Below are positions 22,801-47,325 of a stretch of DNA of 64,000 bases, piece by piece. The notes below the pieces were generated by a model. It did not search any database. It was not told where the DNA came from and saw nothing but the letters and a program-made list of their open reading frames with translations. The position numbers and the translations under genes are program-made. Numbering within the stretch: position 1 is the first letter of the stretch; each line of letters starts with the position of its first letter. This DNA comes from Yuukianura sp. NJ FZ-2021 (Eukaryota): assembly GCA_046563655.1 (NCBI GenBank), contig CM102290.1, positions 15,190,001-15,254,000 of the forward strand. The letters are read 5' to 3'.

Positions 22801-25800
22801 GTCAGTGGTAAATTTTAATTGTGATTTCCAAATTTCAGGAAATCTTTCCCATGTGCGTTGGTTGGAAGCGAGAATGAAGATGCTATTAGTGAGAATGGGA
22901 GTGAGCCACTGCCGGGTGACGTGGAGCCAGACTCTCCCCTCAGCATCCCACTTCCAGACTCCACCCCACCCCCTTCTGTTCGCGGTGGGCCCAGTTTGGA
23001 TGACGAAGAGTCACACGAACTCTCTTCCGCAGATGAAAAAGAGGGCAAGGGCCAAGGGAAGGACGAGTACGATCCATCACAGCCCCTCACGAGTGACGAC
23101 GAGTGTGAAGTGCCTTTGCCAGCATCGGATCCAATTCTGTCCACTTGGGAAACGAAGGGGACTGGAGAAGGGAGTTCAGAGCCACCACAGTGCCCCACCC
23201 CTTTGGCCCCACCGACGGACGAAGGGCGTCGTCCCACGATCCAGTTCTCCATCCCCTCCCGCCACCGTCTCTTCTCTATGGGGTCCCTCATGCGCAGAAA
23301 TACTGGCGTGATGAAGAAAGAAGTCAAAGGGGGGAGCCTCAGCTTCCAGTCAGAGATGTCCAAGGCCTTTGCTGTGAAGGGGGCAGAAGAAGGGGGGACT
23401 GGAGGGGCGGAGGGGGAGAAAATGTCTTTAGTAGCAGAAATCTTCGGTTCAGATGAAGATGAAGAGGAAGGGCTCCCTCCACTGGACACAATTCACACAA
23501 ATCAACAATTGACCTCAACAACTCAAGTGGACACAACTGAATCAGCACAACTGGACCCACCCCCAGTGGAGAGTACAACTGAGAGTCCAAGTGTGGAGGG
23601 GAACAAGTGGAAGAAGATTGTGGAGGACCCACCAGCCCCACCTCAAGTCCCACCGGAACCACTCGTCCAAGAAGAGAGTGAGGATGAAGTTGTGGTGATT
23701 GGGGAGACGCCTGCTGAAGTCCAAATCATTGAAACTCCGCCTCCAGAACCAGAAGATGAGCCTCCTAAAGGAGAAGAAGAAGATCCAAAGGAGGGGGCCA
23801 TAACGATTGCCCTGGCCAAAGTGCTTGATGAGAGTGAATTCAAGAGTCCGAGTCCATTGTCACGGCATGAGAGTGGATCTGAGAGTGAGGCAGAGCGACA
23901 AGGACTCAAAGAGAAGCGGCAGAGTGGACGCAAGAGCGAGGGACGACGGAAGTCTCCGAAGAGAGACAGAGGAAGAAGGAAGAGATCCCGCACTTTGTCT
24001 GGAGGAAGCAACAACCGAGAGGAGGGTGAGATTCTGGATGTTCCTGATAAAAAGAAGAAGAAGAAGACGAAAAAGTCCAAACGGAGGAGACGCAGTACGA
24101 GATCCAGCAGCAGTTCCAGTTCTGTTCCTTTTTCTGAGAAGAAGATTCCAGAGGATGTGCATGGCCATGTTTCGGATGAGGAAGATGTAAGGAGAGATGT
24201 CCACTGGAAAAAACCTTCCAAATCCTCCAAACAACGAAACTATCGGTCAGTTTAGCCAACATTTTAGTTTGTTTGGGATGAAAGTTTCCAGTTTACTAAA
24301 GTTTTTGTTTTGTTTTAGTGATGGAAAACCTAAAACTGAAGAGCGTTACTTTCGAGAGCGAGAGAAGAAAGTGGAGAATGATCGTGAAAAAGAAAGTTTG
24401 AGTCGAACGCATGAGCGTGAAGAGATGCGGAAGAGTGAGAGAAGCAGAAGCAAAGAGCAGCGGTCTAGTCGGCGACGGTCGAGTCCCCACAAAAGACGAG
24501 GGAGATCCAAACACTCTAACCGCAGTTCCAGTTCCATCAGAAACTACAGATCTCGTTCCAGATCTCTCCATTCGAGGTAATTCCAAGGTTGCTAGAGCGA
24601 CATTTATACAAATGCCGTCAGAGGTTACGTCATAACTCCGATTTTTTTAAAAAAAAAGCAAGAAAACTTTTGGACCAATTTTGCTTATTTGTACAATAAT
24701 CTTTTTAAATTTCACGTTGCTGAGTCGTTGCATTCATTTCGAATTGCTAACGCAACGGAGACGCGTCAGATGTATGGTTCAAAAAATTAAAAAAAAAAAA
24801 GAAAAGAGAATAACGGGGTTATGACATAACCTTCTAAGAAAAAATGAACAAAATTTCGATTTAAACGAACGTTGTGGTAAGTTGCAACACATTTTTTGCG
24901 GTAACATGAGAATCTGATTTGTTTTTGTTATTTAGATCTCCAAGAGGACGTCAAAGTCGTCACTATCGCGACCATTCCTACTCGCCAGCAGAGTGGCATG
25001 CTTCCCCCGTCCGAGAGAGAAGAAGATCACGCCATCGTTCTCGCAGTGGCAATAGACGGCACGTGACTAGCAGAAAAGGAAGCGGGAGTGACGGCGGGCG
25101 ACGACAGAAGAGGAAAACACAGTCCAGGTCACGCTCTGCCTCTCCCAGACGAAACAAAAACGTTGGACTGGAACCGTCTGCACCAAAGAAGGCCAAGAAG
25201 GACGCTGTGAGCGAAGGGAATCAAGGAACTGCTCAAGCTGACAGTGGACCAAAAGCCACGGAACCTCTTCCCGAGAAAGTTAGGAATGTGGACAAGGAGA
25301 AGAGGAAGAAGAGAAAACGAAGAGAAAAGTCCATTTCTCCTGCCAAGGCAATATTTGCAGATGGAGACAGCATTGTCGTCAGTTTGAATTTCCAGAAAGG
25401 AAAAGAAAGTGAGAAGGATGGAGGAACAGAAGGGAAAAAAGATGAGAAGAAGAGTTCCAGTTCCAAAGGAACCAAGGACAAGTCCACGAAATCCATCAAG
25501 AAAACTGTTTTGATTGACTTGGAGTGTTCGCCGATCCAAGAGCAGAATATCGGCCACTCTCCAACTCTCATTGTTTTGAGTGACGATGAAGAGCACGCGA
25601 AGGGAGAGGAGTCTGATCCAGATCGACTCGCAGTGTCAACTACAAGTATGGGAGAGAAGTCGCCGTTATATCGAGAGGGAGTTCCAGCAGACAGCACGCA
25701 ACTACAACTCCATTCCAATGACGACAAAGGAAGCGACATTCATGGGCGACACTCAATGTCGGAAAGTGATACTGGCAATACACCAGCGAGAGGAGATGCA

Positions 25801-27175
25801 TTGGTCACTTCTACTCGAGACTCGGTGGACAGAAATGGAGGGGTTCAGGAAGAGTACTTGAGTCCCTGCAGTACCCCGCCCAAGGAACCCTCCACCCCCA
25901 ACTACCCTTCTCTCACTCCACCACTCCCCCCTCCATCTCCAACTGCACTGTCTCCACAGCAACAACACAAAAGTCAGTCTTCCACTCCACACATTGGCTC
26001 AAATCCACCTCCACTAGTCTCTACGGTTGCCACGGTTACGCGTCCTACCGTTGGCCTCGCCTCTCTTCCGCTTTTTCCTCCAGCTCGACCGCAAGGATTT
26101 CCTGGATCTGGATCGCAACTGCCCGTGATGCTGCCCACGGCGCCGCAACTGCGTCTCCCTCCTTCGAACTTGTTCAACCAAAGTGTGCTGGCCACGGTGG
26201 CCAACGCCCTCTACGGCCCTCTCATGGGCCCTCAGCCGCGCTTCCCACTCGTCCACCAATCAGGGCCTCCGAACCCTAGTCGCCAGGGGGGCAAGAAGAC
26301 TAGTGGAGGAACTGTGCTTCTGCCGAAGGATCAGAACTTGTCCACGCAGAAGAGGGCGGAGGGTGGAGACTCTCCCTTTTCACCCAACAGCAGTGATGGA
26401 GACGACTTGTTTGAGCCACCAAAGGACCCTGCTCATGCACCAACTTCTAAAACTACCACTGGGGGGCAAGGTCACAAGGGGACTGAGAGTCATACGACAG
26501 AAAGTGGTGGGGCGAAGGGGAAGGGACGTCCGGCGGCTAGAATCTTCGATGCTTTGTTTGGTGGGCCAATTCGAAAACCGGCTACATCAGGAGGAAATCC
26601 CACCAAGTCTGATGGGGGGAGCAAACAAACGAAATCACCACACAAGTCAAAATCTAGAAAAGGTAATTAACAAATTGATTAGTTAAAGTAAAGTTAACTT
26701 TAGTTTCATGTTTAGTTTGTGTTTTGACAGGGAGCAGCAGGAAGGCTGCTAGCAATTTGAGTGAGGGGGAACTTCGGCTGACGGAGGAAGTTCCAACGTC
26801 GGCTGTGGAGCTCCATGTCAAAGAAAAGGTGAATTCACATACATCTTTTTTTGAATTTCTTTTTGAAATTGTGTTTTGGTTTTCAGTTTTTGAAAAAGTT
26901 GAATCGACAAGAGCGTGTGGTGGAGGAGGTCAAAGTTTCTCTGAAGCCACACTACAGTAAGAAGCACATCACAAAGGAAGAGTACAAGGATATTCTGAGA
27001 AGAGCAGTACCCAAGGTAAATATTACACAACTCTAAAACTTGAGAAAAAGTTATAAAAAGTTGGTTTCATGTGTTTTAGATTTGTCATAACAAGACTGGA
27101 GAAATCAATCCAATCAAGATCAAAGAACTGGTGGAAGCCTACGTTAAAAAGATTAGGAAAACTAAGAAAAAGTAG
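19828..27175 (+). CDS. PHRF1: PHD and RING finger domain-containing protein 1 (RING, PHD, RS-rich region, C-terminal SRI-like domain)
   Basis: [65 protein letters not shown]-terminal [42 protein letters not shown]. Confidence 0.92.
20791..21093. mobile_element. MITE (family D, CTGAAA-rich) in a PHRF1 intron with 7-bp TSD GCAGTTG
   Basis: CAGGGT...ACACTG ends; GCAGTTG at 20784-20790 and 21094-21100; a close inverted copy lies at 58645-58947. Confidence 0.9.
24622..24832. mobile_element. Small TIR element in a PHRF1 intron
   Basis: AGGTTACGTCATAACTCCG ... CGGGGTTATGACATAACCT imperfect 19-bp inverted repeat. Confidence 0.55.
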
Positions 27176-27480
27176 GAAATAAGTCACCTAAGTTATATTT
27201 ACAATTTTACTCAACATTTCGTCTTACCACATCGCAACTAATCCACTAATCTAAATCATAAAAATTAGGCTAACTCTAAGGCTACTCATATAAAAGTCGT
27301 GTGTAAAATGGGTTTGCATTTAGATTGTTCCAAAAGTTGAATCTTTTGTTTTAGCATTTTGTAAACGTTAGATTTCCGCAAAGTGTAACTTGTATTCGTT
27401 TCTCCTCGCCAACTCGTTTCTTTTTGTAATAAAGTCAATTAAAAGTTTAAACTGAAAGGAGACTGTGCAGCAGAAGAATA

Positions 27481-27760
27481 ATTATTGTCGATTTCAGCTG
27501 AGATCGGGGGTGGCGATTCGCTAGGGTTATTGTCGATTTTCAGCTGAGATCGGGGGTGGCGATTCGCTAGGGTTATTGTCGATTTCAGCTGAGATCGGGG
27601 GTGGCGATTCGCTAGGGTTATTGTCGATTTCAGCTGAGATCGGGGGTGGCGATTCGCTAGGGTTATTGTCGATTTCAGCTGAGATCGGGGGTGGCGATTC
27701 GCTAGGGTAATTGTCAATTTCAGCTGAGATCGGGGGTGGCGATTCGCTAGGGTAATTGTT
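27481..27760. repeat. 45-bp minisatellite, about 6 near-identical copies
   Basis: Unit TCAGCTGAGATCGGGGGTGGCGATTCGCTAGGGTTATTGTCGATT, just downstream of the PHRF1 AATAAA. Confidence 0.97.
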
Positions 27761-28180: not shown

Positions 28181-31100
28181 ATGGTTGTGGCGACATTTTG
28201 GGCGACATTTGTCATGTTGAGCCTCCTCGGAATTGAAGTGACCTCTGGTCAGGGCGACACCGTGGTCAACATTCGTGAGTTCATTTTGAGTTTAGATTCA
28301 AATCCGTTTGTCCATCAAAATGGCTGCCTCATGCAACGCATTATTCCGTGGAGACACAAAACACAAACAAAATCAAAAATTTAAAAAGAACCAACTCAAA
28401 ATGGCCTTGCATTTTAGTCGTCGAGGAATCCACGAATAGCATTTTCCCTTTTCCACAATTTTTTTGAAAAATGAAAATATTTTGGACACAAAAGTTGAGG
28501 GACCGATTCAAAAATCCTGACTTTTCTCCTCAAGTTTTTCATTTCACCACTTTGTAGATTCTGGTTTTAAAAAAATGTCCCACTTTTGACATGTTTGAAA
28601 TGATGATTGAAGTTTTGAATTTTCCAGTTTTCATTTACCAAGATGAAGAGTGGAGAAAGTTGTTTGATGAAACCGTGGCCAAGTACTTTTCGCACCATGA
28701 CCAAAGGAATCTCAAAATCAGGGTGGGGAGGGTCCATGCCTTTGATGCCAAGAAGTCCAGCGACTTTGACACGCTAGCCACAGAGTGTAAACATTCAGCA
28801 CAACCTATTTTTATGTAAATAGAATATAACTTTTCATGGTTTTCATAAATATCAATGTTTGTAGTTTGCAAATTCTACGAGGAGGCAATGGGAAGTGATG
28901 CGAAGCCGGACGTGGCCATTGATTTCACGCGAATCGGAACTCCGTCGGAAGCAGTCAAAATGGTTTTGAGAGCAATGCAAATGCCAACAATTGCAGGGAG
29001 TTTTGGACAGGAAGGAGACATCAAGTACTTTCACTCTCAATAATATTACTCTATTTATTTATTATTTTATATTAATTCCCTCTTAGAGAATGGCGTGATT
29101 TGAAGGATGATCAGCATAAGTTTTTGATTCAAATCTCTCCGCCGGCGGACGTTCTCATTCAATCCGTCCGATCGCTTGTAGAGAAGCAAGACATGACGAG
29201 TGCCGTCGTCCTGTTCGACGAGGACCAGTATGGTCAGTACTCCACATTTTCTAAATTTCAAGATTTAAAATTCAAAATTTTAAAATGTTGATTTTTAGAA
29301 ATGTACCACAAGTACAAAGCCCTCCTGCAGAACCTGCCCACTCGTCACCTTCTGACCAAGACAGAAACGAAAGTGGGTGAACTGCGGAAGCAGATTGATC
29401 ACTTGGTTCACGTGGACATTGTCAACTACTTCATCGCTGGAAAAGTGTCGCAGATCACACAAGTTGTCACAGAAGCGAGCAGGGAAAATGTAGAAGATGG
29501 ACCATACTTCAGCGACGAGTTTGCATGGTACTCCATGACCCTGGTAATTCAACACTTAATTGAAATAGTTAATTAAATATTTAATTAGCAAAAGTAATTG
29601 ATAGGTTCCTGGAGAGGAGGAGGTTCCACAGTGTGGTGAATGCGAAGTTGACGTGACGCTCATCCACGTCGTTCCATACGCAGTTCTGGAAATGACTAAC
29701 CCACGCAAAAGGTTCTTGAACCAAACGCTGGGCCCCACCCAAAACGACCCACTCTCACTCTCACACATGTTCTACTTTGACATTGCAGTGGACGCTGTCC
29801 TCGCAATCGGGTGAGACCTTGACCTCGCAAATTAAACACATTTTGAGAGCGGGAAATTGAAAAGTGTGTTTTAAAATTACAGACGCCTGAAGCAGCAGGG
29901 AAAGTACAAGGTGAGTGGTGTGAAGCAGACTTGTGGCTATGACCCCTTGACCAAGAAAGTGAAGGGATACAGTGGAGTGACCTTGGACCTCCTGAAGGAA
30001 TTGAGGAGTGTTGCAGTTGCAGGTCAAAACATGGTGAAGTTGAGGCTGGACAGGGAAGGGAAGCCGGGCAAGAACTACGCCGAGGTCAAAGCCAACATCT
30101 ACCGTCTCGTGTACGACGCCAAGCAGGCAAAGCCCAGGACCAAGGACAGGATCGGCTATTGGACGGCAGATTTCGGATCCACGGAGAGCAGGCAGCTGAG
30201 GATTCAGAATGAAACGCAGCTAGCGGCACACAGGGCCTACACTGTCTTCAGAATAGTCACTGTCGTCGTAAGGGCAAAGGTCAAAGGTCACTCATCATGG
30301 ACTAAACATTTCCTTTTTTTAAAAGCAAGCCCCATTTGTGATGGAATTTGAGAACTGCTCCACCAAGGGGAAGGGGAACAAGTACAAGAACTGTTTCTAT
30401 GGTTACTGCATTGACCTCCTCCACAAGATCACAGAAGATCTCAAGTTCAACTACACGATTCGAGCAGTGGAAGGGTATGGCTACATGAACGACTCTGCAC
30501 CACACAACTGGGACGGAATGGTCCTACAACTGGAGAAGAGGGTACATCTTTTCAAAAGGAATCCAATTTTCTAATCAAATCTAAAACAAAATTTATGTAT
30601 TTTGAAAATTGTCTTTAGAAAGCTGACATCGCTCTTGGTGCGATGTCGGTAATGGCAGAGCGGGAAAGTGTGGTTGACTTCACTGTGCCTTACTATGACC
30701 TCGTAGGAATTTCAATTCTTATGAAAAAACCAAGAGTTCCAACATCACTTTTCAAATTTCTGACCGTACTCGAAAACGAAGTGTGGGGATGCATCTTGGG
30801 AGCATACTTTTTTACCAGGTAGTTTTTGAAAAACTTAAAAGCGTTTACAAAAAAAAAAACCTTTTTTTAAATGTTTCACAAACGTTTATTACAAAAAAAA
30901 ACGTTCCTTAAATGTTTTTAGCTTCATTTAAAAAAAAGCGTTTGTTAAACGCTTATTACAAAAAACGTTTTCTTTAGATTCATTACAAAAAACGTTTCTT
31001 AAAAACGTTTTCTTTAGATTCATTACAAAAAACGTTTTTAAACGCTCTTTTTAGATTTATTACAAAAAACGTTTACAAACGTTTTTTTAGACTCTTATGT

Positions 31101-32599
31101 TTTGAACAGTTTCCTGATGTGGATATTTGACCGTTGGAGTCCTTATAGTTACCAGAACAACCGAGAAAAGTACGAGGACGACGAGGAGAAGCGAGAGTTC
31201 AACCTGAAGGAGTGTCTGTGGTTCTGCATGACTTCCCTGACTCCGCAGGTACTTATACTGCCAGCACATACTGCCAGCACATTGTAGTGGAAGTATTTGT
31301 AGGGTGGAGGTGAGGCTCCGAAGAACCTGTCTGGTCGCCTGGTGGCAGCGACTTGGTGGCTCTTTGGCTTCATCATCATCGCCTCCTACACCGCCAACTT
31401 GGCAGCCTTCTTGACGGTCTCTCGCTTGGACGCTCCAATTGAGTCGCTCGACGATCTGAGCAAGCAGTACAAAATCCAGTACGCTCCTATGCGGGGCAGC
31501 GGAGCTTGGATTTACTTCAACAGAATGAAAAATATAGAGGCACGCTTCCATGAGTAAGATTTTGGAGAGTGAAAGTGTGAAAATTTGTGATTTTGAAGTA
31601 TTTTTGTACTTTTGAGTATTTGGAGGAACATGACGTTGAACGAAAGTCTGAGTGCACTTGAGCGTGCTGAGATTTCTGTGTGGGAGTATCCGGTGAGTGA
31701 CAAGTACACGAGGATGCTTGCAGCGATGGAGGAGAATGACCCACCGTGGAATTTCACATCAGCGATGGAGAAGGTCCGAGCAGTGAACAACGACTCGAGC
31801 AAGGACAGAGATGGATTCGCTTTTCTCGGTGACTTTTTAACGTGGACGGAAGGAATAACTTTGTCACTGTTTAAAAGAATGAAGTGTCAAATTTTTAAAA
31901 TGTAGATGAGGCGACGAACGTGCGATGGCAGACGACGATCAGTTGCGACTTTGACCAGAAGGGGGAGGAGTTTTCTCGGAAGCCGTATGCAATCGCAGTG
32001 CAGAAAGGCTCTCCTTTGAAGGAATCCATTTCACACATGTAAGAATGAGCTAAAAGTTCAAACAGAAAGTGGATTTCCATTTTGAAATGTTTGTCTTTGT
32101 TGAGGATTTTGAAACTGCTGAATCAGCGCACACTGGAGCAACTGAAGGAGAACTGGTGGAGCAACGCCACTTACAAGGTCGTATGTCCAAAAGAGGACAA
32201 CCAGTCTGACGGAATCAGCATTCACAACATTGGTCAGTTTCACTTGTTCCAAATTTTATTTTTGGAATTTTTGAAAAAGTTGTTTGAAAATGTTTTTGAA
32301 ACTGTAGGTGGAGTGTTCATTGTGATTTTTGTGGGGATAGTGATGGCTTGTTTCACTTTGATTTTCGAGTACTGGTGGAACAGGAAGAAGAATCGGACGG
32401 AGGAACTGGGAGACCCACCATCCTCCAACCAATTTACATCCACTGTCCCACCGTCCCCACCGGAAATGGAGAGAGCAAACTTCAACACTCAATACGACAA
32501 GTAAAAGTCACTCTCTTTTTCAGGGTTCAAAATTAATTTGAATCTTTTTGCAGACCACCGGAACGTATTGTGTTGCCATCCGTTGAGAATTGCTGGTAA
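28181..32599 (+). CDS. Ir25a: Ionotropic co-receptor IR25a paralogue 1 (most derived S2), 16 coding exons
   Basis: Signal peptide, ATD ([14 protein letters not shown]), S1 [78 protein letters not shown]4 [11 protein letters not shown]; open through all exons. Confidence 0.93.
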
Positions 32600-33251
32600 A
32601 AAGAAGATCCTGGACTCACTTTTAACTGTTGGAATCTAATCCTTAGTTTGCGGGCTAAAAGTGAAAGTTTAGTTTTGAAATGTTAGTTGAAAGTTAGACT
32701 TTGAATTCATTTGGAGTGAGTAGTGATTCACCCAAATAAATGGAAACATGTACTTTGGAAATAGCATGCTTCAAGTCCACTTGAGTATTTCTACGAAATC
32801 ACAAAAAATGTCAGACTTTCACTTGCGGACGCTACTTTTGGAGGGAAGGGAAGAGAAAGTTGATTTTGTGTGAGTTTAGAGAGACAGAAGTTGGACAAGT
32901 GGAGACATGCTGGGAAGTATTGAATAATTGAAACGATGGACAATTGTGTGGTTTGGTTGTCACTCCGTCACCACCATTTCCTCAAGTGGACATCCGAACT
33001 GGATCCGTTTTTGTAGTTCCTTTAAATCAAACATCCCCACTCACTTTCTCCTCACTTTCCTTCCTTCCCTCAGTCACACTTATTTCACTTTCCAGTTCAA
33101 GCACTGCGGGTCAACAGTTTTTTTAAGGTCATACGTCACTTTTCACAAAAAATTTGGGAGGGTGCTTCTGAATTTGCGAAATTTTGGAACCGGTTAGTTA
33201 CAACGCAAGAGGAAGTTTGAAGCATTGGATTTCTTAACTTCAAATTTCAAA

Positions 33252-36200
33252 ATGCAATTCCCAGCATCACTTTCAGTCGTAGTCACTTCACTCACGTTTG
33301 TCCTCGCAATTGGAGTGACCAGAGCAGCACAAGAAGATGACACAGTTGTCAACATCCGTAAGACTTTTTTCAACGTCGCATTTTAAAATTATTTTCAGCT
33401 AGGAAATCTCAATTGTTCACTTTCTACAATTTGAAAGTTTCAATTTAAAAGAAAAATGGAACGCCAAAGTAGTCTGTTTGAAGGTTTGTGCATTGTGTTT
33501 ATTAAGAATTCAAAGGAAAATGGAATCGTGACTGAAAGTCGGAGAGGAAATTGGGCAGCATATTGGCACATTTCCCAATTTCATCCAAATTGTTCCATGG
33601 AATTTCACTATAATGGCACGAAATTGGACAAGCTCATTCTAGCGTCTCATTTTTTGAAATTCCAATTTAACAAATTTTGAACAAAAAACTTTGAATTCTT
33701 TCAGTTTTCATTTCGCAAGACTTGGAGGGGAAGATGCTATTTGAAGCTGCTCAAAAGTACTTCAAGGACACTCCTAATTTCAAAATCAAAATCGGGAAAG
33801 TTCATTTGTTCGATGCCAACTACAACGACTCTGTCAAACTAACAACCGCATGTAACTTTGTCATTTTGTTTCAAAATTATAAAAATGACTCTAGATTAAA
33901 AGTTGGCCTGTTTTGTAGTTTGCAAGGCGTACGATGATGCGATGACAAGCGGAGACAAGCCGGATGTGGCCATTGATTTTACGAGATCCGGAATTGCGTC
34001 AGAGGGCGTGAAGATTGCACTTGCAGCGATGCAAATGCCAACGATTGCAGCCACTTTTGGACAAGAGGGAGACATCAGGTAAACTTTTAGTTCTTTTAGT
34101 TTTTGAAGTGATGTGTAAAATTTAATTTGTGGACAGAGAGTGGCGTGGGTTGAACGACGCACAGCAAAAGTACTTGATCCAAGTGTCTCCGCCGGCGGAT
34201 GTGCTCATCCAAGCAGTGCGCTCAATCGTCGAGAAACAAAACATGACGAGTGCCGTCGTCATGTTCGACGAACAGCAGTACGGTAAGTCCTCACACTTTC
34301 ACTTTGACCTTTGACCTCAAAAAGTTAAGAATTTGAGTTAAATTGTGAACTTTGTTTAGAAATGTACCACAAGTACAAGTCTCTTCTGCAGAACATGCCG
34401 ACACGCCACCTTCTGACCAAAACGGAAACTGCTCCTGACAAATTGGCCTCGCAAATCGATCGGCTGGTTCACGTGGACATTGTCAACTTTTTCATTGCGG
34501 GGAACACTGAGCAGATCACAGAAGTCATCTCCATTGCGAGCAAGGAGAAGGCCAAGGACGGACCGTATTTTTCTGATGAGTTTGCGTGGTACTCCATGTC
34601 ACTCGTAAGATCCAAACTCACAAATAATTGGACTCCCGCCCTTTCCGTCTAAAACGAAACGGACTTTCCTTTTTTCCGTTTCCGTTTTTTGAATTTTTTT
34701 TGAAACGGTACCTTTCGTTTCGTTTCCGTTTTCGCCAAAAAACAAAACGAAAACGAAAATCAAAAGACGGAAAAACGGAAAGCAGAAAAACCGGAGAAAA
34801 TGTTCCTTTTTTGCGACACCCCGTACTGAAATTTTGGGAAATTAAAAATTAAACTTTAAATTTATAGTTCATCCAAACTATTTTTCCATAGTTGGAATAA
34901 CAAGAAGTGGATTTTTGAAAAGCAGAACATGAAATCTAATTTTTGAAATTTCATTATCAGTCAACCGCTTTACCGTTTTGAAAACGTTTTTCATTCCGTT
35001 TTGCCTCCTACCGTTCCGTTTCGTTTCCGTTTTTAGGAAAAAAAAAACGAAACGCACGACGGCCGCCCTAACAAATACATGAATATTAAAAAGTGAAATG
35101 GAAATGACTTTGAGTTTGTAGGTGCCTGGAGAGTTGAAACTGCCGCAGTGTTCTCTGTGCGACGTGGAAGTGTCGCTGGTCCATCTTGTTCCTGACCCCA
35201 TTCCCATCGGAAACACACGCAAAAACTTCCTCACAGGTCAAATCAAGACGAATGACCTCTCTCTGACTCAGATGTTCTACTTTGACATCGCAGTCGACGC
35301 CATTCTGGCAGTTGCGTAAGTGCATCTCAAAATGTCAAGGTGGCCTTTGACCTTGAGCTGTGTTTGCAGGTCCATGAAGAAGTCGAGCTTGTACAGCCTC
35401 AACAACGACAACAACAGTTGCAAGCTGTATGCGAAGGACAGCAGACTGCCTGCCTACCCCACACTCAAGCTGGACTTGCTGGAGGCATTCCGAACTGCGA
35501 GTGAGGACAACGGAGTGCCGTTTCACTTGGAGGGCAAAACAGGAAGGAACTACCCCGAATTCAGCGTCTCCATCAAGCGACTCACGTACGAACCACACAA
35601 AGCAGCTCCCAAGTCAACAGAGTTCATCGGAAAGTGGACTGCAGGCTTCTCGGAGGGGAATCTCATCCAGTACGACAAGGGCAAGGACTTGGTCGCACAC
35701 ATGGCGCACACTGTCTTCAGAATTGTCACCTACGTCGTAAGTAAGGGGAGTAAATCCGGATTTTTGACGGATTCGGATTCTTCTAAATCCGGATTTCAAA
35801 AAAATGGAACACGGATTTTGACGGATTTTTGAATCCGTTTGAGGGTACAGACAATTGAAAAATTGACGCCAAAAACTGAAAAATTGAGTTTATATAAAAA
35901 AATGTTTTTCAAATTAAGTTAATCAAAAAGTAACATTCCTGAAATCCACTATGAACTTTTTTTGGTACTTGGAGTTTAAAGCCAACGTTGTTCATAATTT
36001 TGAAAAAAAAACTAAACAAATTGTTATTAGGAAATACTATGTGTATTCTAAAATCCGGATTTAAATTCGGATTTTTTTAATAAAAATCCGTCAAAATCCG
36101 AAATCCGGATTTCGAGAAAGACGTGACGGATTTACAACCCTAGTCGTAAGCCAACTCCACTCGCACTTTGGCCTTTGACCTTTCTCTTTTCAGCAACCAC

Positions 36201-38221
36201 CTTTTGTGATGGAACTGAAGAACTGCAACTCGAGTGGGAAGGAAAACAAGTACAACAACTGTTTCTATGGTTACTGCATTGATCTCCTGGAGAAGATCAA
36301 AGCAGAACTCAAGTTCAACTACACCATTCGAGCAGTGACTGATGGCTATGGCTACATGAACGACAGTTATCCACATGAGTGGAACGGAATGGTCAGAGAA
36401 CTCAAGGACAGGGTCAGAAATTTAACAGAAATTTTTAGAAATTTGGTTTGTTTCAAAATGAATTTGAGATTTTCAGAGAGCGGACATTGCCCTTGGTGCG
36501 ATGTCGGTAATGGCAGAGCGGGAAAGTGTGGTTGACTTCACTGTGCCTTACTATGACCTCGTCGGAATTTCAATTCTTATGAAAAAACCGAAAATTCCGA
36601 CGTCACTTTTCAAATTTTTGACGGTCCTTGAAAACGATGTGTGGATGTGCATTTTAGCAGCTTACTTCTTCACAAGGTTCTGCTTCAAACAAACTTTTTA
36701 AAAATTTGTTCTGGTCAACGTTTCAGGAATATTTTCTAAAAAGTTACGTTTTGAACAGCTTGCTGATGTGGATATTTGACCGTTGGAGTCCTTATAGTTA
36801 CCAGAACAACCGAGAAAAGTACGAGGACGACGAGGAGAAGCGAGAGTTCAACCTCAAGGAGTGTCTGTGGTTCTGCATGACTTCCCTGACTCCGCAGGTA
36901 CTTATACTGCCAGCACATACTGCCAGCACATTGTAGTGGAAGTATTTGTAGGGTGGAGGTGAGGCTCCGAAGAACCTGTCTGGTCGCCTGGTGGCAGCGA
37001 CTTGGTGGCTCTTTGGCTTCATCATCATCGCCTCCTACACCGCCAACTTGGCAGCCTTCTTGACGGTCTCTCGCTTGGACGCTCCAATTGAGTCGCTCGA
37101 CGATCTGAGCAAGCAGTACAAAATCCAGTACGCTCCGATGAAGGGCAGTTCAGCCTGGATCTACTTTGACCGCATGGCGCACATCGAACACCGCTTCTAC
37201 GAGTAAGTTCCTCAGAAATGGACTGATGAACTGATGAAATGAACTGATGACTGATGTAGGATTTGGAAGGACATGAGTTTGAATGACAGCATGAGTGACT
37301 TTGAGCGGTCGCAACTCGCAGTGTGGGACTACCCGGTGAGCGACAGATATACGAAGATGTGGCAGGCAATGATGGAGAACAGTCCGCCCGACAACTTTAC
37401 AGAGGCGGTGGATCGAGTGCGAGCTGTGAACCACAACGACTCTTCCAAGGAGAAAGATGGATTTGCGTTTCTCGGTAAGTGTGCGACCGGAAGCGGGAGT
37501 ATAGGAGTCAAAATGACGAAAGACTGTTTGTTGTTTGCAGGAGATGCGACTGACATTCGATTCCAAGTGCTTACAAACTGCGATTTGCAGATGATCGGAG
37601 AAGAGTTTTCTCGCAAACCGTACGCTCTAGCTGTACAGCAGGGCTCGCCACTCAAAGACCAGCTCAACGACGCGTAAACTATTTGCTTGTTTGACCTCAG
37701 CCAGTTCAAAAGTTGAGTTTATTTTTGTGTTTTTAGGATTTTGAAGTTGTTGAACCAGCGTTACTTGGAGCAACTGAAGGAGACGTGGTGGAACGAAAAC
37801 AAGCTGAAGGTGAAATGCGAGAAGGACGACAACCAGTCGGACGGAATCTCCATCCACAACATTGGTCCACTCAATTTCATAATTTTGAAATGTTTTTTGA
37901 ACATGTTTTTGAAAATATTTTGACTGGTAGGTGGTGTGTTTATTGTAATTTTCGTGGGGATTGTGATGGCGTGCATCACTCTTCTGTTCGAGTACTGGTG
38001 GTACAGGAAGCGCGGTGTTGTGCAGGAAATGCGAGAGATGCCACTCCCTCCGTCCAAGGAGTTTGGGGCAACCCCACCCATCGACAAAACAAACTTCAAC
38101 ACTCAATATGAAAAGTAAGCCTTAACTTATTTTCCACTTTTCAGTTTTTAGTTGATTTCTTTTGGTTCTTAGACCAGGAGCAGAGAAGACAAGTTTACCA
38201 TCAATTGACAACGCCTGGTAA
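33252..38221 (+). CDS. Ir25a: Ionotropic co-receptor IR25a paralogue 2 (canonical LBD), 16 coding exons
   Basis: Same exon structure; retains the canonical [20 protein letters not shown] and [38 protein letters not shown]. Confidence 0.96.
34628..35070. mobile_element. hAT-like MITE (AAACG-rich) in intron 5 of IR25a-2
   Basis: Ends in GCCCTA; AAACG/CGTTT subterminal repeats; flanked by ACAAATAA / ACAAATAC (7 of 8); orthologous introns in copies 1 and 3 are only about 60-70 nt. Confidence 0.7.
35742..36142. mobile_element. hAT-like MITE (ATCCGGA-rich) with perfect 8-bp TSD GTCGTAAG at an IR25a-2 exon/intron junction
   Basis: TAAGGGGAGTAAATCCG ... CGGATTTACAACCCTA; GTCGTAAG at 35734-35741 and 36143-36150. 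Confidence 0.9.
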
Positions 38222-38915
38222 AGAATCAGTGGAGTGGCGTAGTTGCTGAAATGAGAATTTAATAAAAATTCCAAGTGTAGTCACCTGGAGTTTAAATTTT
38301 AGCTCATAGCTCTGGTATTAAATCACACTGTACTCTAAAAATTTTAGCTCATTTTTAATTTTTTTAAAAAAATTTTTGCATACTTTTGCAAGTTCAGAAC
38401 CGTCGAGCTTAACTCTCTATCACTTTTCATTACCGAATACCGAGATGAATTTTCATTTTTTTTTTAAAACTTTTGAAATTTTGAAAATTGTTGAGAATTG
38501 GTAAGTTGGTGTTTTTGGTTGGTTGTTTGGCTGTGACCTTTTGACCTTGTGGTGGAAATCCATGTACTTGTTGTTGGCGTGTGAAGAGGCGGAGTAGATA
38601 TTCATATTTCCTTGTCCAAGATGGAAGTGGAAAGTTGGTGGTAAATAATTGATGAACTGTGGACAATGAATTGGTCCTGTCATATCGTGTCAACCCTCCA
38701 GTGGGACACGAACCAAACGGGCACTTAAATCCACAGTCCCACTTCCAACTGCGTCCCACTTTCCCTCTAACCACCAACATCAACTTCACTTTCACAAGGA
38801 CACAACTTTCTCCTCACAACTTTTTTTTGACGCTAACTTCACCGCTCCAAACATTCCAAACTTCAAAATTTGGCACCAACTTTGACATTTAGTGCAAAAC
38901 TTTGGATTTGAGAAA

Positions 38916-41900
38916 ATGGTGCCTTGGGTGGGGGTGAGTGGTCTCCTGCTCCTCACTTTGACCTCCACTTTTCACTTAGCTTTTGGTCAGAAGGATGAAG
39001 TTGACCTCAACATTTGTAAGTTCTCAAACTACATTTATCCCTTCACAAAATCACTTTTTCAAAAACTTGAAACAGAATCTTTAAACTTGGGATTTTTTGT
39101 TCTAATTGTGAAACCTTGTGAAAGAATGTGTTTGTACTTACGTTAGTTAGTTAACTAGCGTGGCATTAGATTAGTAGAATTTTCTTTTGAAAAGAGTCAA
39201 GTAGGCTTCATTTTGAGTAAAACCAAGATGGCGGAGAGGGAAGCGTCCAAGGTTTTCCATGGACACGGACAAATGGCATCACAATTAAAAATTCAACGAA
39301 ATTTGAAATGTGTCGCAAACATTGGGGGTTTTAGATTGGCGTGACACTTATTGGCAGTTGCTTATGGCAAGTCATCAAACTTCGTCTTAACCAACACGAC
39401 ATCTCAAACATCATGACTTTTTCAATTTTCCAAAAATGTACCATTTTGAGAAAATTTTTATTCCATTCACCTCTCCTTGTATTTGTCTAAATCATAGTCA
39501 AGTTTCAATTTTCAAAAGGTGGAAACTGTTGAAAATGAAAAGTTTACCTTCTATTTCAATTTCAAAATATGAGTTTGGAAATGTATGAAACTTTTTGTTT
39601 TTAGTTTTCATTTTCCAAGAAGCCCATTTGAAACCGCTGCTTGATCATGCTGTCAAATTTGCAACTGAAAAACTGGGCGTGAAGGTAGGGAAAGTCCACG
39701 AATTTGACGCCAACTACAATGACTCTCTCAAGCTCACTAATGCTTGTAAGCAACTTTTCCAATTTCAAAAAAAAAGTTTGAAAAGTAGGATTGTATAAAA
39801 AGGAAGCGTACTTATTTGTTAGTCTGCCAAAAGTACGGTGAGGCGATGAGTGGGCCGAACAAGCCTCACATTGCCATTGATTTCACTCGAATTGGAATTC
39901 CGTCAGAGGGCGTCAAAATCGCACTTGCGGCCATGCAAATGCCAACGATTGCAGCAACATTCGGACAAGAGGGAGACATCAGGTATGAATTCACGGTTTC
40001 CGGTCACTCATGGACGGATATTTGTGGACGGTTTTTAACGCAGTGCAATAATGTCCATTCCGTCCATTTCTGTCCACCCGTCCATTTGTGTCTGTAAGTG
40101 GAAAAGTTGGGTGATTCCTAAGTTTGATTTTGCAGATCCTGGCGTGACTTGAACAAGAAGCAGCAAAAGTACTTGATCCAAGTGCCCCCTCCGGCAGACG
40201 TCATCGTCCAGTCAGTGAGGACGATTGTGGAGGCCATGGACATGACGAGTGCTGTCCTCATGTTCGACCCAGACCAATACGGCAGGGATTGAATAAAATA
40301 TATAAAATAATTATACAGAATTATATTTTGATGGAATGATATTACAATGACTTTAGAGATGTACCACAAGTACAAGGCTCTGCTGCAGAACCTGCCGTGT
40401 CGCCATTTGCTGAGCAAGACAGAGACGGAAGTGACTAAACTGCAAGGACAGATCTATCGACTGGTGCATGTGGACATTGTCAACTACTTCATCGCAGGAA
40501 AGGCTGCTCAGATCACAGAAGTCCTCGCAGCAGCCTCCAAGAGAGACGCCGCAGATGGACCCTGGTTCTCCGATGAATTTGCATGGTACTCCATGACACT
40601 CGTAAGTCACTCCCTTGACCTCCAGGTCACCGCTTGACCCCTACAGGTCAACACTTTTGTCTCTCTTTTCCAGACGCCGGAGGAACCCTTTCCCACATGC
40701 AAGTACTGCGAAATCGAGGTCACTCTCGTCCACATGCGTCCCAAACCAATTCCGTCCAACAGACGCAAGGAATTTCTGCACGAAGCCCTCAAACCCACCA
40801 TCCTCTCTCTCACTCACATGTTCTACTTTGACCTCGCAGTGGACGCCATCATCGCAGCCAAGTAAGCATGGACGGCAATGGACGGATCTTTATGGACGGA
40901 TTTTTATCCACGACACAAACGCCACTTTCCTCCCTCAAATATCCAAATTGTCCACAAAGATCCGTACAAAAGCGTCTACTTTAAAAATTAAGCTGAAAGA
41001 GTGTAAACTTGGAAATGTTTTTAGCCAATTGAAGAAAGAGGGCAAGTACGACAATCTGCGACTGGACAGGAACAACTGCACGGCTTACGACGCAGGCGTC
41101 AAGGGAGGTTTTGACGCTCACGACTTGAACCTGTTTCCGGAATTCCAAAAGGCAGCAAAGGACAACATGCTCAAATTCCACTTGGAAAGTGGACTCCCCG
41201 GCAAAAACTACCCCACCTTTGAGCTGGAGATGGTTCGCCTCAACTACTCCACCAACAAAATAGACGGAGTGAGGGACAATATCGGGACTTGGAAGGCGGG
41301 ATTCGACACTCCGCAGAAACAACTCTCCTTCGAAAAGGGCAAGGACCTGGACAATCACAGGGCGCACACCGTCTTTCGAGTCGTCACTTACGTGGTAAGT
41401 CCAAGGGCAAAGGGCTCTCTAACAAGTACTTGATTGTTTCCACTTGGGACAGCAAGAGCCGTTCGTGTTCTACAAAGAGGGATGCAACAACTCTGGAAGG
41501 GAGAACAAGTATGTCAACTGTTTCTATGGTTACTGCATTGATCTCCTGGAGAAGATCAGAGAAGATCTCAAGTTCAACTACACCATAAGGAATGTGTCTG
41601 ATGGGTATGGGTACATGAACACGTCGGAACACGATCCAGACCACAAGTGGAACGGAATGGTCTTAGAACTCAAGGAGAGGGTACCACTTTCCCAAATTTA
41701 CATTTTCATTTCAATTTCAGTTTTCAATTTCAAAATTTGGTTTGTTACAAATTGAATTTGTTGAGTTTTTCAGAGAGCTGACATCGCTCTTGGTGCGATG
41801 TCTGTGATGGCAGAACGGGAAAGTGTGGTTGACTTCACTGTGCCCTACTATGACCTCGTAGGAATTTCAGTCCTCATGAAAAAACCAATAGTGGAAACGT

Positions 41901-43529
41901 CACTTTTCAAGTTTCTAACAGTACTGGAAAATGACGTCTGGATGTGCATTTTAGGCGCCTACTTCTTCACAAGGTTTCAATTTTTACAAGAGTTGGTTTG
42001 AACAAAGTTTAAAAAACGTTTCAACTTCTTTTTAAAACGTTCAGTTTCCTGATGTGGATATTTGACCGTTGGAGTCCTTATAGTTACCAGAACAACCGAG
42101 AAAAGTACGAGGACGACGAGGAGAAGCGAGAGTTCAACCTGAAGGAGTGTCTGTGGTTCTGCATGACTTCCCTGACTCCGCAGGTACTTATACTGCCAGC
42201 ACATACTGGCAGCACATTGTAGTGGAAGTATTTGTAGGGTGGAGGTGAGGCTCCGAAGAACCTGTCTGGTCGCCTGGTGGCAGCGACTTGGTGGCTCTTT
42301 GGCTTCATCATCATCGCCTCCTACACCGCCAACTTGGCAGCCTTCTTGACGGTCTCTCGCTTGGACGCTCCAATTGAGTCGCTCGACGATCTGAGCAAGC
42401 AGTACAAAATCCAGTACGCTCCGATGAAGGGCAGTTCAGCCTGGATCTACTTTGACCGCATGGCGCACATCGAACACCGCTTCTACGAGTAAGTTCCTCA
42501 GAAATGGACTGATGAACTGATGAAATGAACTGATGACTGATGTAGGATTTGGAAGGACATGAGTTTGAATGACAGCATGAGTGACTTTGAGCGGTCGCAA
42601 CTCGCAGTGTGGGACTACCCGGTGAGCGACAGGTACACGAAGATGTGGCAGGCAATGATGGAGAACACTCCGCCTGAAAACTTTACTTTTGCCGTGGAGC
42701 GAGTTCGGGGAGCCAATAAGAGTCAGGCGGAGAAGGAGAAGGACGGATTCGCTTTTCTTGGTCAGTCATTGCTTAAAATTGTAAAAACATTTGACATTAC
42801 TTTGAGAACTGATTTGGAAATTGGATTTTGAAGATGAGGCGACGAATATAAAGTGGCAGACGGTGATCAGTTGCGACTTTGATCAAAAGGGGGAGGAGTT
42901 TTCTCGGAAGCCGTACGCAATCGCAGTGCAGAAAGGCTCTCCTTTGAAGGAATCCATTTCACACATGTAAGAATGACCTAAAAGTTGAAAGAGAAAGTGG
43001 ATTTAAATGTCTGTAGTTGTGTATTTGTTTAGGATTTTGAAGCTGTTGAATCAACGTTACTTGGAGCTGCTGAAAGAGAACTGGTGGAACAATGCCACTT
43101 ACAAGAAGCAGTGTCCAAAGGAGGAGAATCAGTCCGATGGCATCAGCATCCACAACATTGGTACTTTCAAATTTGTAAAAAAAAGGATGAAATTTGTTAA
43201 TTTTGAATGTTGTAGGTGGTGTTTTCATTGTGATTTTCGTGGGGATTGTGATGGCTTGTTTCACTTTGGTGTTCGAGTACTGGTGGTACCGCAAGAGAAA
43301 CGTGAGTGAGGAATTGGCAGAGATGGCTCTGCCTCCACCCAAGGAATTTGGATCCACCTTCACAACCACGCCTGCTCCAACCATCGAAAAAACCAACTTC
43401 AACACGCAATACGACAAGTAAAGAAAAAAAAACACTTTTTCATTTTGTGGAATTGTGCTCAAAAGTGTAACTTTTATTTGTAGACCGCCCGAGCGCACCA
43501 CTCTGCCATCCATTGAGAATGCTTGGTAA
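38916..43529 (+). CDS. Ir25a: Ionotropic co-receptor IR25a paralogue 3 (mosaic S2), 16 coding exons
   Basis: Same exon structure and motifs; intron 4 needs a GC donor (40282); ends LPSIENAW*. Confidence 0.93.
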
Positions 43530-44417: not shown

Positions 44418-47325
44418 ATGTCCGACGAAGAAGAAGTCTACTCGTAAGTGTCCAAATTATTCTTCTCCTTTCACAAATCCCCTCTTTCTAACAACTTCCA
44501 AAGTTCAAAGTTCAAAAAGTGAAAAGCGGACAGAGGAATGCGTGTAACTTCTTTAGCATCCTTGCTCAAAGTTTTTTTTTAAATCTCCCTGTGAGCTAGG
44601 TCTTACTTTCGTTTGAAAATTTGTTCCCAAACATTTTTAAAAGAATTTTGATGGAAAGTTTTGAGGAATTTGGGTTAATTTTGGGTGTAAAGTAAATGGC
44701 GGTTGAAAAAGTTGAAGAAGGTGAGGGATGTGGCTGGGCTGAAAGCGTTTTGCGTCTGGCGTTGTTCCAGGCCCCGAGATGGCCCAGTGCTCCACACTAA
44801 ATTTAGACTCTGTCAAAATGATGAGTGTTCATTCCACTGACAAAGGAAATACTTGAACAGCATTCAAATGTGTCTCTGGAACCACGTTCTGTGCCTCTCT
44901 CCTCTTGACCTTTCACTTTTACACTCTTTTTACATCCACATTTCAAAAACAGAAACTAGTTTGGAATTGTGAATTTGTGTGGTTTGAATTGCAGGGAAGA
45001 GGAGGCGGAGGAAGCGTAAGTCAAAAACTAAAACACATTTCCAGTTCAAAGGTGGAAATTGCAGCGGGGATTTGGTTCAATTTATGTTCTACTTTTTTGT
45101 CTGTCACTTCCAGGAAGTAAGCCCCCACTTCATGAGTCTTAGACAAAGAAAACGTTATGATCTTATAACATTTCCAAACCCAAAACTTGGAATTTTAACT
45201 CACTTTTTTAAATTCAAAGTTTTCACAATTTTTGAATTTTCCAATTGCTATTACTCTCATTTTTGAAAACTTAAGGACAAGAGACCATGAGCCAATTTTT
45301 TGTTGAATTAGTGGATAGACTTGTAGCAGTTTGTTCAAAAAATGATACAACTTTCTTTTTGTGGACAAGGAAAAGGGAAAGGTCTATCCACACTTTTTTT
45401 GTAGAAATGCAAGAGTAATTTGGAGTTGAGACGTAACGATGTTGGGTGTAACCTGAGTTTAACGAAGCCTAACTAAGAGAGTAACTAACACTTTGACGTT
45501 GTTAATTAACGATTTGTTAAACGTACGTCTTTGAAGGGAGGAGCCGAAGGGAGGAGAGGCAGAGTTTCTCAAGGTAACACTGGAAACACTTTGGACAAGA
45601 GAAGAGTGTAATTCAATTTGAAATTCCAGAGACAGCAACATTCGCGTTCTGACTTGGATGAGCAACTGAAGGTGAACTGAAAACGTGAAATGAAATGTAA
45701 AAATATCGAATTGTGTAAAAGTGACTGTTTTGTTGTAACTCAGGAGTACATTTTGGAGTGGAGACGACAGCGGTCGAAGGAGGAGGATGAGTTGAAGAAG
45801 TTGAAGGACAAGCAGGCTAAGCGGAAGGTATGATTTCCTTTAATTTGAAATGGAGGTTGACTCCTTTGTGTTGTAGACACTGCGTGAGCAAGAGGAGAAG
45901 CGACTGGCTGAGAAGAAGAAGGCGGAGGATGAGCGTCGCCTGCGTGAGTTGGAGGAGAAGAAGCAGCGCGAGCAGGAGGAGAAGCTGCGTCGCCTGGAGG
46001 AGGCTGAGCGGAAGCGGCAGTTGATGCTGCAGGCGCAGAAGGTGCTGTGCTTGAGTCAATTGCTTGATCAACAGATGATGAGAGTGTGATTGTTTAGGCG
46101 AGTGTGGGGGGGAAGCTGAGTTTGCAGCGAGATGGGACGGACGACGTAAGTTGTGTCAATACTTAGAGTTGAGCAGTGCTAAGTGTTTTGGTGTAAAAGA
46201 TGCTGGGCATGGGAGATGCTCGAGCGGAGTTGAACAAGACGAAGGAGCAGTTGGAGGAGGAGAAGCGGATCTCCATGAGTTTCCGCATCAAAGCACTGGA
46301 CGTGACTGGGTTGTCTGCGGATGCGTTGAAGAAGAAGGCGCAGGAGTTGTGGGACCATGTCGTAAGGCTGGAGACGGAAAAGTACGACTTGGAGGAACGC
46401 CAGAAACGACAAGACTACGACGTAACTCCTCACTTGGAAACGAAGTAAACGCTTGTTAATCGTTTGTTTCGTTGCAGTTGAAGGAGTTGAAGGAGCGGCA
46501 GAAGCAGCAGTTGAGACACAAAGCGATGAAGAGAGGGCTGGACCCAGAGTAAGTCCACTCATTTCCACCATTACAAGTTAGGAATGTGTACTTTGTAGCA
46601 TTTGAATTCCAGGGCACTCACAGGGAAGTATCCAGTAAGTTCCAGCATTTTGACCTAAATTGAAACAGAGGTGAGTACAAATGAACTGTTTTCAGCCCAA
46701 GTTGCAAGTGGCTTCCAAGTATGAAAGAAGAGTGGACACGAGAACGTACGGAGACAAGAAGAACCTGTTCGAGGGTGTAAGTTCCAGTTTAATTCCACAC
46801 TTAATTACTATATCATCAACTATTAGTTAATTATATAATAAATATTTATAAATATTCAGTAATTAACACTCAAAAGGTCCTTGGAACTGTTGTTTTTTAG
46901 GAACTGGAGAAGCTGAGCAAGGAGACGAATGACAAGCAGTGGGCGGAAACCCTCAAGACGTTCGACGGCAGACAAAAGAGTGAGTTGACCTCATGCTCTG
47001 ACCTTTGACCTTGACATTTCCACAACATTTGAATGTGCTTTGCAGCCAAACTGCCGAAGTGGTTCGGAGAGCGACCTGGAAAGAAGAAGGGAGAAGCAGA
47101 CTCCCCGGAAGAGGAAGAGGTCAAGGTCAGCCACTCACTATACAAATATTAGTACAAAATATTATACTATAAAATATTACATTTTAATTCAAATATTACA
47201 AGGACGCTGGCCTCCCTGACTCCCTCCTTGTCTTTGATGAGGCCAACTTTGAAGCGGAGGCAGAACCAGAACCAGAAGCTGAGGAGGAGGAGGAGGAGGA
47301 AGAGGAGGAGGAGGAGGAGGAGTAA
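44418..47325 (+). CDS. TnT: Troponin T (protostome type with C-terminal poly-Glu tail), many small exons
   Basis: MSDEEEVYS|..EFLK|RQQHSRSDLDEQLK|EYILEWRRQRSKEEDELKKLKDKQAKRK..LETEKYDLEERQKRQDYD..GLDPEALTGKYP|PKLQVASKYERRVDTRTYGDKKNLFE..LPKWFGERPGKKKG..E14*. Confidence 0.97.
44797..44806. promoter_or_regulatory. Candidate intronic MEF2 site in troponin T
   Basis: Perfect CTAAATTTAG in the long first coding intron; motif plus context only. Confidence 0.45.

Follow-up and report, generated by a model that had tools for sequence, protein, structure and literature searches.

A tandem array of three IR25a genes in Yuukianura sp. that probably divides two ancient forms of exon 13 among its copies

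IR25a, a co-receptor gene that serves smell, taste and humidity sensing, is normally present only once. Its product is the primary co-receptor described from Drosophila and Anopheles (Croset 2010, PMC2924276; 10.64898/2026.09.30.755715) and is usually treated as one invariant co-receptor. Triplication of the gene would by itself be ordinary: duplicates are known from some lineages, as an earlier note on the DNA studied here had stated. Four IR25a paralogs are reported from Campodea augens (PMC6938034) and duplicates from Leptodirini and Hydroporini beetles, including cave beetles (10.1101/2022.12.08.519422); the available part of a collembolan genome paper (PMC5644144) mentions only an IR25a orthologue. 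Here, we describe a tandem array of three IR25a genes in the springtail Yuukianura sp. NJ FZ-2021, found in a stretch of 64,000 nucleotides (nt) (GenBank assembly GCA_046563655.1, contig CM102290.1, positions 15,190,001 to 15,254,000, forward strand) that is referred to as the window and whose own numbering is used throughout. Like the Campodea and beetle duplications, the array holds several IR25a paralogs of a soil or cave hexapod, but no exon partition and no conversion is reported in the available text of those papers.

A second point of comparison is splice-form subfunctionalisation, in which duplicates divide among themselves the isoforms of an alternatively spliced gene, as described for vertebrate genomes (Lambert et al. 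2015, PMC4417111). The array appears to share with those cases the division of isoforms among duplicates, but it is a tandem array in a hexapod, one isoform seems to have been duplicated further, and exchange between the copies appears to be ongoing. The components, namely IR25a paralogs, splice-form subfunctionalisation and gene conversion, are known. Their combination at one locus and the IR25a exon pair itself are new with respect to the literature searched, mostly titles and the starts of abstracts, which gave no account of IR25a alternative exons or their partition.

Spliced models for all three copies were assembled from the raw window sequence and lists of splice sites, and gave the following genes.

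28181-32599, + strand, IR25a copy 1: 970 amino acids (aa), 16 exons, exon 13 of type B, diverged beam
Copy 1 exons, + strand: 28181-28274, 28628-28786, 28865-29024, 29087-29232, 29299-29543, 29605-29810, 29883-30267, 30326-30541, 30619-30818, 31110-31248, 31303-31553, 31617-31828, 31906-32038, 32105-32232, 32308-32500, 32554-32599
33252-38221, + strand, IR25a copy 2: 960 aa, 16 exons, exon 13 of type A (the insect-like form)
Copy 2 exons, + strand: 33252-33357, 33705-33851, 33919-34078, 34137-34282, 34360-34604, 35122-35315, 35370-35736, 36194-36412, 36477-36676, 36759-36897, 36952-37202, 37260-37474, 37541-37673, 37737-37864, 37931-38114, 38173-38221
38916-43529, + strand, IR25a copy 3: 963 aa, 16 exons, exon 13 of type B, apparently ancestral beam and C-tail
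Copy 3 exons, + strand: 38916-39015, 39605-39745, 39823-39982, 40136-40281, 40357-40601, 40674-40861, 41025-41394, 41453-41680, 41774-41973, 42045-42183, 42238-42488, 42546-42760, 42834-42966, 43033-43160, 43216-43417, 43484-43529

Each model is an open frame with only a terminal stop (3/3 copies) and the 15 intron phases match across all three, which bears out the claim in the earlier note of three head-to-tail 16-exon genes with the same intron positions, each with its own stop and free of frameshifts. The signal peptides and downstream polyadenylation motifs also claimed there correspond to an N-terminal hydrophobic stretch in each copy (best 11-residue Kyte-Doolittle mean 2.25-2.46) and to AATAAA at 32735, 38261 and 43705, though the latter counts for little by itself because 0.24, 0.24 and 0.09 such motifs per 200 nt would be expected by chance at copies 1, 2 and 3, respectively. 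No in-frame ATG lies further upstream of the start in any of the three copies. The intron donors are GT in 44 of 45 cases and GC in one, and all 45 acceptors are AG. The GC donor, which the earlier note did not mention, is found in an intron that includes no GT and meets a stop when read through:

40282-40356, + strand, intron 4 of copy 3, with the GC donor at the orthologous position

Pairwise, the copies share 627/949, 636/945 and 675/947 residues (66, 67 and 71 % amino acid identity). When exons 10-13 are left out, the synonymous distance (dS) between copies is 1.05-1.23 and the nonsynonymous distance (dN) 0.28-0.30, with dN/dS about 0.23-0.27, and most introns align between copies at background level only. 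Hence, a haplotype or a false duplication, the latter named earlier as grounds for abandoning the triplication, is excluded, and the three copies are old paralogs under purifying selection.

What divides the three genes is exon 13, which was aligned ungapped to residues E738-A781 of GluK2 (positions counted along the 8f0o alignment).

31906-32038, + strand, exon 13B of copy 1: 133 nt, with Glu, Lys and Ser at the GluK2 E738, M770 and T779 sites
37541-37673, + strand, exon 13A of copy 2: 133 nt, in which these three sites are Asp, Gln and Asn
42834-42966, + strand, exon 13B of copy 3: 133 nt

Between copy 2 and either of the others, exon 13 is sharply different (24 of 44 aa), while copies 1 and 3 match each other at 41/44. 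Both versions occur side by side in single genes elsewhere. Ten metagenome loci were examined, six of which (L001, L002, L003, L005, L006 and L009) span the exon-13 region, and a B exon followed by an A exon, each with intact AG/GT ends, was found in 4/4 distinct, springtail-like genes (L002/L005, L003, L006 and L009); L001 has an A-type segment only. L002 and L005 were counted as one gene because the contig they share contains a perfect 17.8-kb palindrome (2581-20408 of L002) that carries the same IR25a gene twice, in opposite orientations and without differences, probably as a result of amplification or of an error in assembly. Each alternative exon is 133 nt long with its own AG/GT ends, and including both in L006 leads to a premature stop. 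L006 is the closest relative, and its two exons sort the three copies: exon 13 of copy 1 shares 41/44 aa with L006 exon B and 25/44 with exon A, that of copy 3 shares 42/44 and 26/44, respectively, and that of copy 2 shares 41/44 with exon A and 23/44 with exon B. In an exon tree, copies 1 and 3 group with L006-B (SH-aLRT 99) and copy 2 with L006-A (93). L006 also has an extra intron (562-642) within its equivalent of exon 9 that is absent from all three window copies. At L003, the upstream neighbour is the same gene as in the window and there is one IR25a gene in the 24 kb covered.

Named species were compared as well. In Folsomia, the RefSeq isoforms X1 and X2 have the same length of 964 aa and their 16 differing residues all lie in 798-841, which is exon 13, and the gene models behind Folsomia OXA52707 and Allacma CAG7815217 hold type B and then type A. 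Same-length A/B isoform pairs were found in Penaeus chinensis, P. japonicus, P. vannamei, Panulirus ornatus, Macrobrachium nipponense and Pollicipes, and in Scylla a B-type model stands alongside A-type isoforms; among the members examined, Procambarus, Portunus, Artemia, Periplaneta, Zootermopsis and Cloeon have A only. Both forms of exon 13 are therefore ancestral, with B sitting beside A in single springtail genes and in crustacean isoform pairs, and B did not originate in copies 1 and 3. The exon types, length and boundaries in the window are those of the single-gene systems of Folsomia, Allacma, decapods and barnacle, but there each gene has two exons 13 and here each has one. Introns 12 and 13 of the window copies are 63-77 nt long with no second exon inside, a tblastn search for remnants of lost exons returned only the three known copies of exon 13, and the best of 24 exon-versus-intron alignments was reached by 5/200 shuffles, which is unremarkable for 24 tests. 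Since each gene holds only one exon 13, choice by splicing is impossible at this locus. An ancestral single gene with both exons, paralogs each fixed for one (B, A and B) and the retention of all forms are what subfunctionalisation predicts, and the array is very probably a partition of splice forms that left copy 2 with A as its sole version and copies 1 and 3 with B as theirs.

GCATG, the Rbfox motif, occurs only twice in the 12 introns that flank the exon pair at four two-exon loci, and 12 pairwise comparisons showed no intronic block to be conserved. In the exon tree, which has few columns (44) and a long branch, the A exons form one clade (96) and the B exons do not, and IR25a-like outgroup proteins P0036 (Strigamia), P0190 (Crassostrea) and P0009 have Ser at the T779 site, P0036 and P0009 having Lys at the M770 site as well. 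The insect-type A form may thus be the derived one. Allacma fusca also has a second IR25a-like protein (P0039, CAG7815474.1) on a long branch, with the beam kept and the sequon not; its E738 site is Glu and its M770 site Lys, and it is an independent springtail paralog.

The genes are also mosaics. Three bounded, near-identical tracts that include introns and synonymous sites, and that differ by pair of copies, were recognised.

31114-31487, + strand, apparent conversion tract common to all copies: exon 10, intron 10 and the greater part of exon 11 (pore, M3)
36763-37381 (matching 42049-42667), + strand, longer apparent tract of copies 2 and 3: pore, introns 10 and 11 and all of the beam
42834-42996 (matching 31906-32068), + strand, apparent older exchange tract of copies 3 and 1: exon 13B and the start of intron 13

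In the first tract, copy 1 has 1 mismatch in 374 nt to copy 2 (36763-37136) and 1 in 381 nt to copy 3 (31107-31487 versus 42042-42422), and intron 10 is identical at 54/54 and 53/54 positions. The tract of copies 2 and 3 has 4 mismatches in 619 nt, with an exact run of 423 nt and intron 11 matching at 57/57. That of copies 3 and 1 has 14 mismatches in 163 nt, intron 13 matching at 54/66, and the proportion of synonymous differences (pS) in exon 13 is 0.22 against ~0.58 elsewhere. An assembly artefact, whether of the triplication or only of its identical tracts, might be suspected from stretches of 374-619 nt that are >99 % identical, introns included, but outside the tracts ~57-60 % of synonymous sites differ and the introns are of unequal length and cannot be aligned, and the tracts themselves end at different places in different pairs, have mismatches scattered along them and are graded in age (99 % versus 91 %), making this explanation most improbable. 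Gene conversion appears instead to have homogenised the pore throughout the array, the beam between copies 2 and 3 only and exon 13 between copies 1 and 3 only. The tracts end at module borders, the all-copy tract just short of the beam in copy 1 and the longer tract before exon 13 in copy 2, and though there are only three of them, selection may set these borders. The possibility that intron 10 owes its identity to a conserved RNA element next to the codon of the pore was also considered; this was rejected because the L006 intron at that place is an unrelated 83 nt and the Q/R position is a proline.

All three genes are IR25a and not IR8a, as a phylogeny had been expected to show. Exon 5 of copy 2 has its best named matches in springtail IR25a (Orchesella, Allacma and Folsomia, 69-72 %). 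In a protein tree built by a quick method from 35 of 46 aligned rows, with 11 left out, the copies fall together (SH-aLRT 99) inside springtail IR25a (100) within IR25a (99), separate from the IR8a clade (100) and apart from AMPA/kainate-like rows. PF10613 (exon 8) and PF00060 (exon 11) pass the curated cut-offs in all three copies. About 450 N-terminal residues align with named springtail IR25a at its amino-terminal domain (ATD), and the assignment of a full ATD rests on this homology because a Pfam search of exon 5 alone gave no match in 3/3 copies.

The residues that mark a co-receptor were taken from a cryo-EM preprint (10.64898/2026.09.30.755715) and mapped by motif offset. The beam/CREL is confined to primary co-receptors, where the beam locks the clamshell, and tuning subunits are without it (10.64898/2026.09.30.755715; PMC6472016). 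Copies 2 and 3 have all five of its key residues (Phe700, Asn710 of the sequon, Asp711, Glu717 and Val728) and copy 1 keeps four, with Asp711 replaced by Glu; Arg520, the pore proline at the Q/R site and SYTANLAAF are present in all three. The acidic residue 769 is Asp in copy 2 and Glu in copies 1 and 3. The copies show neither the hallmarks looked for in IR8a (placement in the IR8a clade, a TFTANLAAF gate, a shorter beam tip) nor those of tuning receptors (no beam, a truncated ATD, a degenerate M3 motif). Domain order, the beam/CREL with its sequon, Arg520, pore proline, SYTANLAAF and tree placement are shared with the IR25a of Drosophila and Anopheles, from which the locus differs in having three tandem genes, two of them with a B exon. 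In all likelihood, every copy that is expressed is a co-receptor.

The chemistry of exon 13 suggests where the two forms may differ. GluK2 residues E738, M770, R775, D776 and T779 are named in PMC3866869. At the corresponding sites, springtail B exons have Glu for E738 in 8/8 and both Lys for M770 and Ser for T779 in 8/8, and 10 named crustacean B-type sequences have the same Lys and Ser. The A exons have Asn at the 779 site and Gln at the 770 site, except for His (L009), Arg (Pollicipes) and Asp (Artemia) at the latter. Among 85 proteins, the M770 site is Gln in 73 and Lys in 7, and Lys was found in 0/45 named insect IR25a proteins, all of which have Gln (cluster representatives only, counted by name). 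Judged by Asp769 and the insect sequences, Anopheles IR25a would be of the A type. GluK2 entry 2xxu, which from its sequence we take to be the M770K mutant, has in place of the wild-type Met a Lys that aligns with that of B. The cation-pocket residues E/V/D are kept in all three copies, at what we presume to be positions E524/I527/D528 of GluK2.

The Lys759 of GluA2 reaches into the cation pocket, where it competes with ions, and in GluK2, which has Met at that position, the pocket must be occupied (PMC4819453); insect IR25a complexes bind Na+ at the equivalent site (10.64898/2026.09.30.755715). A functional switch of the ion site between the Lys of B and the Gln of A is thus conceivable, though we consider it somewhat less probable than its absence. 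Weighing against it, GluA2 K759M alone changed little in NaCl (6.9 versus 9.9 ms; Na+ rarely bound; PMC4819453), so that the Lys/Gln exchange may matter little, IR25a/IR93a interfaces exist without ion sites, the available text of the preprint does not name the pocket residues (10.64898/2026.09.30.755715), and the difference at the E738 site is not fixed, several crustacean B exons having Asp.

AMPA receptors carry, as flip and flop, a mutually exclusive pair of S2 exons that alters the dimer interface of the ligand-binding domain. The IR25a pair resembles it in being mutually exclusive S2 exons, but the IR25a cassette lies mostly upstream, covering the E738 and M770 sites and only the first turns of the interface helix, and it is no member of the flip/flop family.

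The copies have also diverged individually, copy 1 most conspicuously in its beam.

31488-31828, + strand, beam/CREL region of copy 1: last part of exon 11 plus exon 12, accelerated in this copy alone
32888-33188, + strand, upstream element common to copy 2 and the upstream region of copy 3 (38618-38906): candidate promoter

Of the 118 sites of exons 11 and 12 that do not vary among the other two copies and six outgroups, copy 1 is changed at 20, of which 19 fall in residues 726-769, and relative-rate counts for these exons with L006 as outgroup are 27 for copy 1 against 3 for copy 2 and 29 against 2 for copy 3. It has a second beam sequon four residues before the usual one (residues 738 and 742); a sequon shifted by exactly four residues is reported for some orthologues (PMC6472016). 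The element upstream of copies 2 and 3 has a local score of 82 against a maximum of 46 in 200 shuffles and was not found before copy 1, where the pair scores of 36 and 38 were reached by 35 and 15 of 200 shuffles. A 45-nt tandem array (27482-27759; 6.2 copies, 98 % matches) lies ~420 nt upstream of the start of copy 1.

In the ATD, copy 2 is slowest and copies 1 and 3 have changed more with most outgroups (52 versus 22 and 45 versus 26 changes with L003), and copy 3 has the most L006-like C-tail. The earlier proposal that copy 2 keeps the ancestral role and copies 1 and 3 have specialised is thus right in that copy 2 is canonical, insect-like and slowest in the ATD, and fails in that the S2 sequence distinguishing copies 1 and 3 is ancestral exon B and did not arise by specialisation after the duplication. 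By the same token, copy 3 is as ancestral as copy 2, and has the most ancestral C-tail. The proposed specialisation as partner- or organ-specific co-receptors is plausible for copy 1 only.

Taken together, the array is probably a partition of the splice forms of one ancient gene combined with domain-wise conversion. The ancestral springtail IR25a would have had tandem 133-nt exons, 13B upstream and 13A downstream, used one at a time, with a frame shift if both were included. Tandem duplication followed by loss of one version per copy would have left copy 2 with the A isoform and copies 1 and 3 with B isoforms, and later exchanges would have given all three an identical pore, copies 2 and 3 an identical beam, and copies 1 and 3 similar exons 13. 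The locus would then put out an ancestral beam with A (copy 2), an ancestral beam with B (copy 3) and a new beam with B (copy 1), and the choice between A and B would have passed from splicing to separate promoters. Four observations sit uneasily with this account: mutually exclusive use in Folsomia is known from RefSeq models only, intron 4 of copy 3 has a weak GC donor and no GT inside, copy 2 groups with L006 in the best protein tree (73/83), and the monophyly of the three copies, though not rejected (p-AU 0.105), is not established either. The synonymous distance to L006 is greater than that among the copies, and the protein trees do not settle the order of duplication relative to L006 and L008.

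The weak donor also enters a different account, in which one of the B copies is decaying, either copy 3 through a broken donor or copy 1 through relaxed selection on its beam, where the 20 changes at otherwise invariant sites and the missing upstream element could be read in that way. Frames of 963-970 codons without stop or frameshift despite dS ~1.1, and the dN/dS given above, speak for continued function, the key beam residues of copy 1 are kept and many of its changes are conservative, and a neighbouring gene likewise reads through only with a GC donor near 53330. Decay is therefore unlikely, though for copy 3 it retains some standing, as dN/dS would not register a donor mutation of very recent date. 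Still less likely is that copies 1 and 3, once duplicated, neofunctionalised to become ligand-tuned subunits, an option also raised in the earlier note. Their Glu at the glutamate-binding acidic site, as in GluK2, and their faster ATDs would suit it, but that Glu belongs to the ancestral exon B (8/8 springtail B exons), and both copies keep the beam, Phe700, the Asn710 sequon, Glu717, Val728, SYTANLAAF and the pore proline. Ligand tuning is unlikely for any of the three because all keep the beam/CREL, the key residues, SYTANLAAF and the pore proline.

Other features were noticed elsewhere in the window. A RING/PHD gene with a SCAF11-like C-terminus (PF23030, 25.5 bits, under the cut-off of 27) occupies the upstream flank (~19800-27200) and is syntenic in L003, and troponin T (PF00992) lies downstream (44418-47326). 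A probable GC-AG intron at 53330-53393, with the frame open when spliced at GC, belongs to a neighbouring gene that we presume to be Ric-8-like. A satellite at 1079-4380 comprises ~300 copies of an 11-nt unit (87-89 % matches), and three dispersed repeat pairs (20794-21093/58645-58944, 755-1069/16618-16924 and 10015-10370/12674-13026) are mostly inverted, 78-95 % identical, partly self-complementary and resemble miniature inverted-repeat transposable elements.

Under the splice-form partition, all three copies would act as primary co-receptors, two per tetramer, and not as tuning subunits. Exon 13 would set the chemistry of the apex of the ligand-binding domain that faces the partner subunit, where the Lys of B could fill the cation pocket and A would leave it open for Na+. 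Our best guess is that B also reshapes the interface helix, so that the two forms would suit different partners or modalities, and the remodelled beam of copy 1 may alter pairing with co-receptor or tuning subunits. A bolder and doubtful extension is that pancrustacean IR25a has always come in two biophysical forms, a Na+-site-open A and a lysine-plugged B, for different partners or modalities, which the genetics of insects had no means of revealing and which are here hard-wired into separate genes, with copy 1 an incipient primary co-receptor that through its remodelled beam pairs preferentially with itself, replaying the IR8a split, and with selection barring conversion from the beam and exon 13.

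That the locus keeps both S2 exon forms as separate genes suggests that each was worth keeping, and this speaks for a separate role of the B isoform. At this locus, A and B can be distinguished gene by gene, and the hypothesis of a single-residue Lys/Gln difference in the pocket is testable on the newly solved IR25a complexes. Copy 1 may be a natural experiment in how a new class of co-receptor becomes insulated through its beam, the step proposed for the origin of IR8a.

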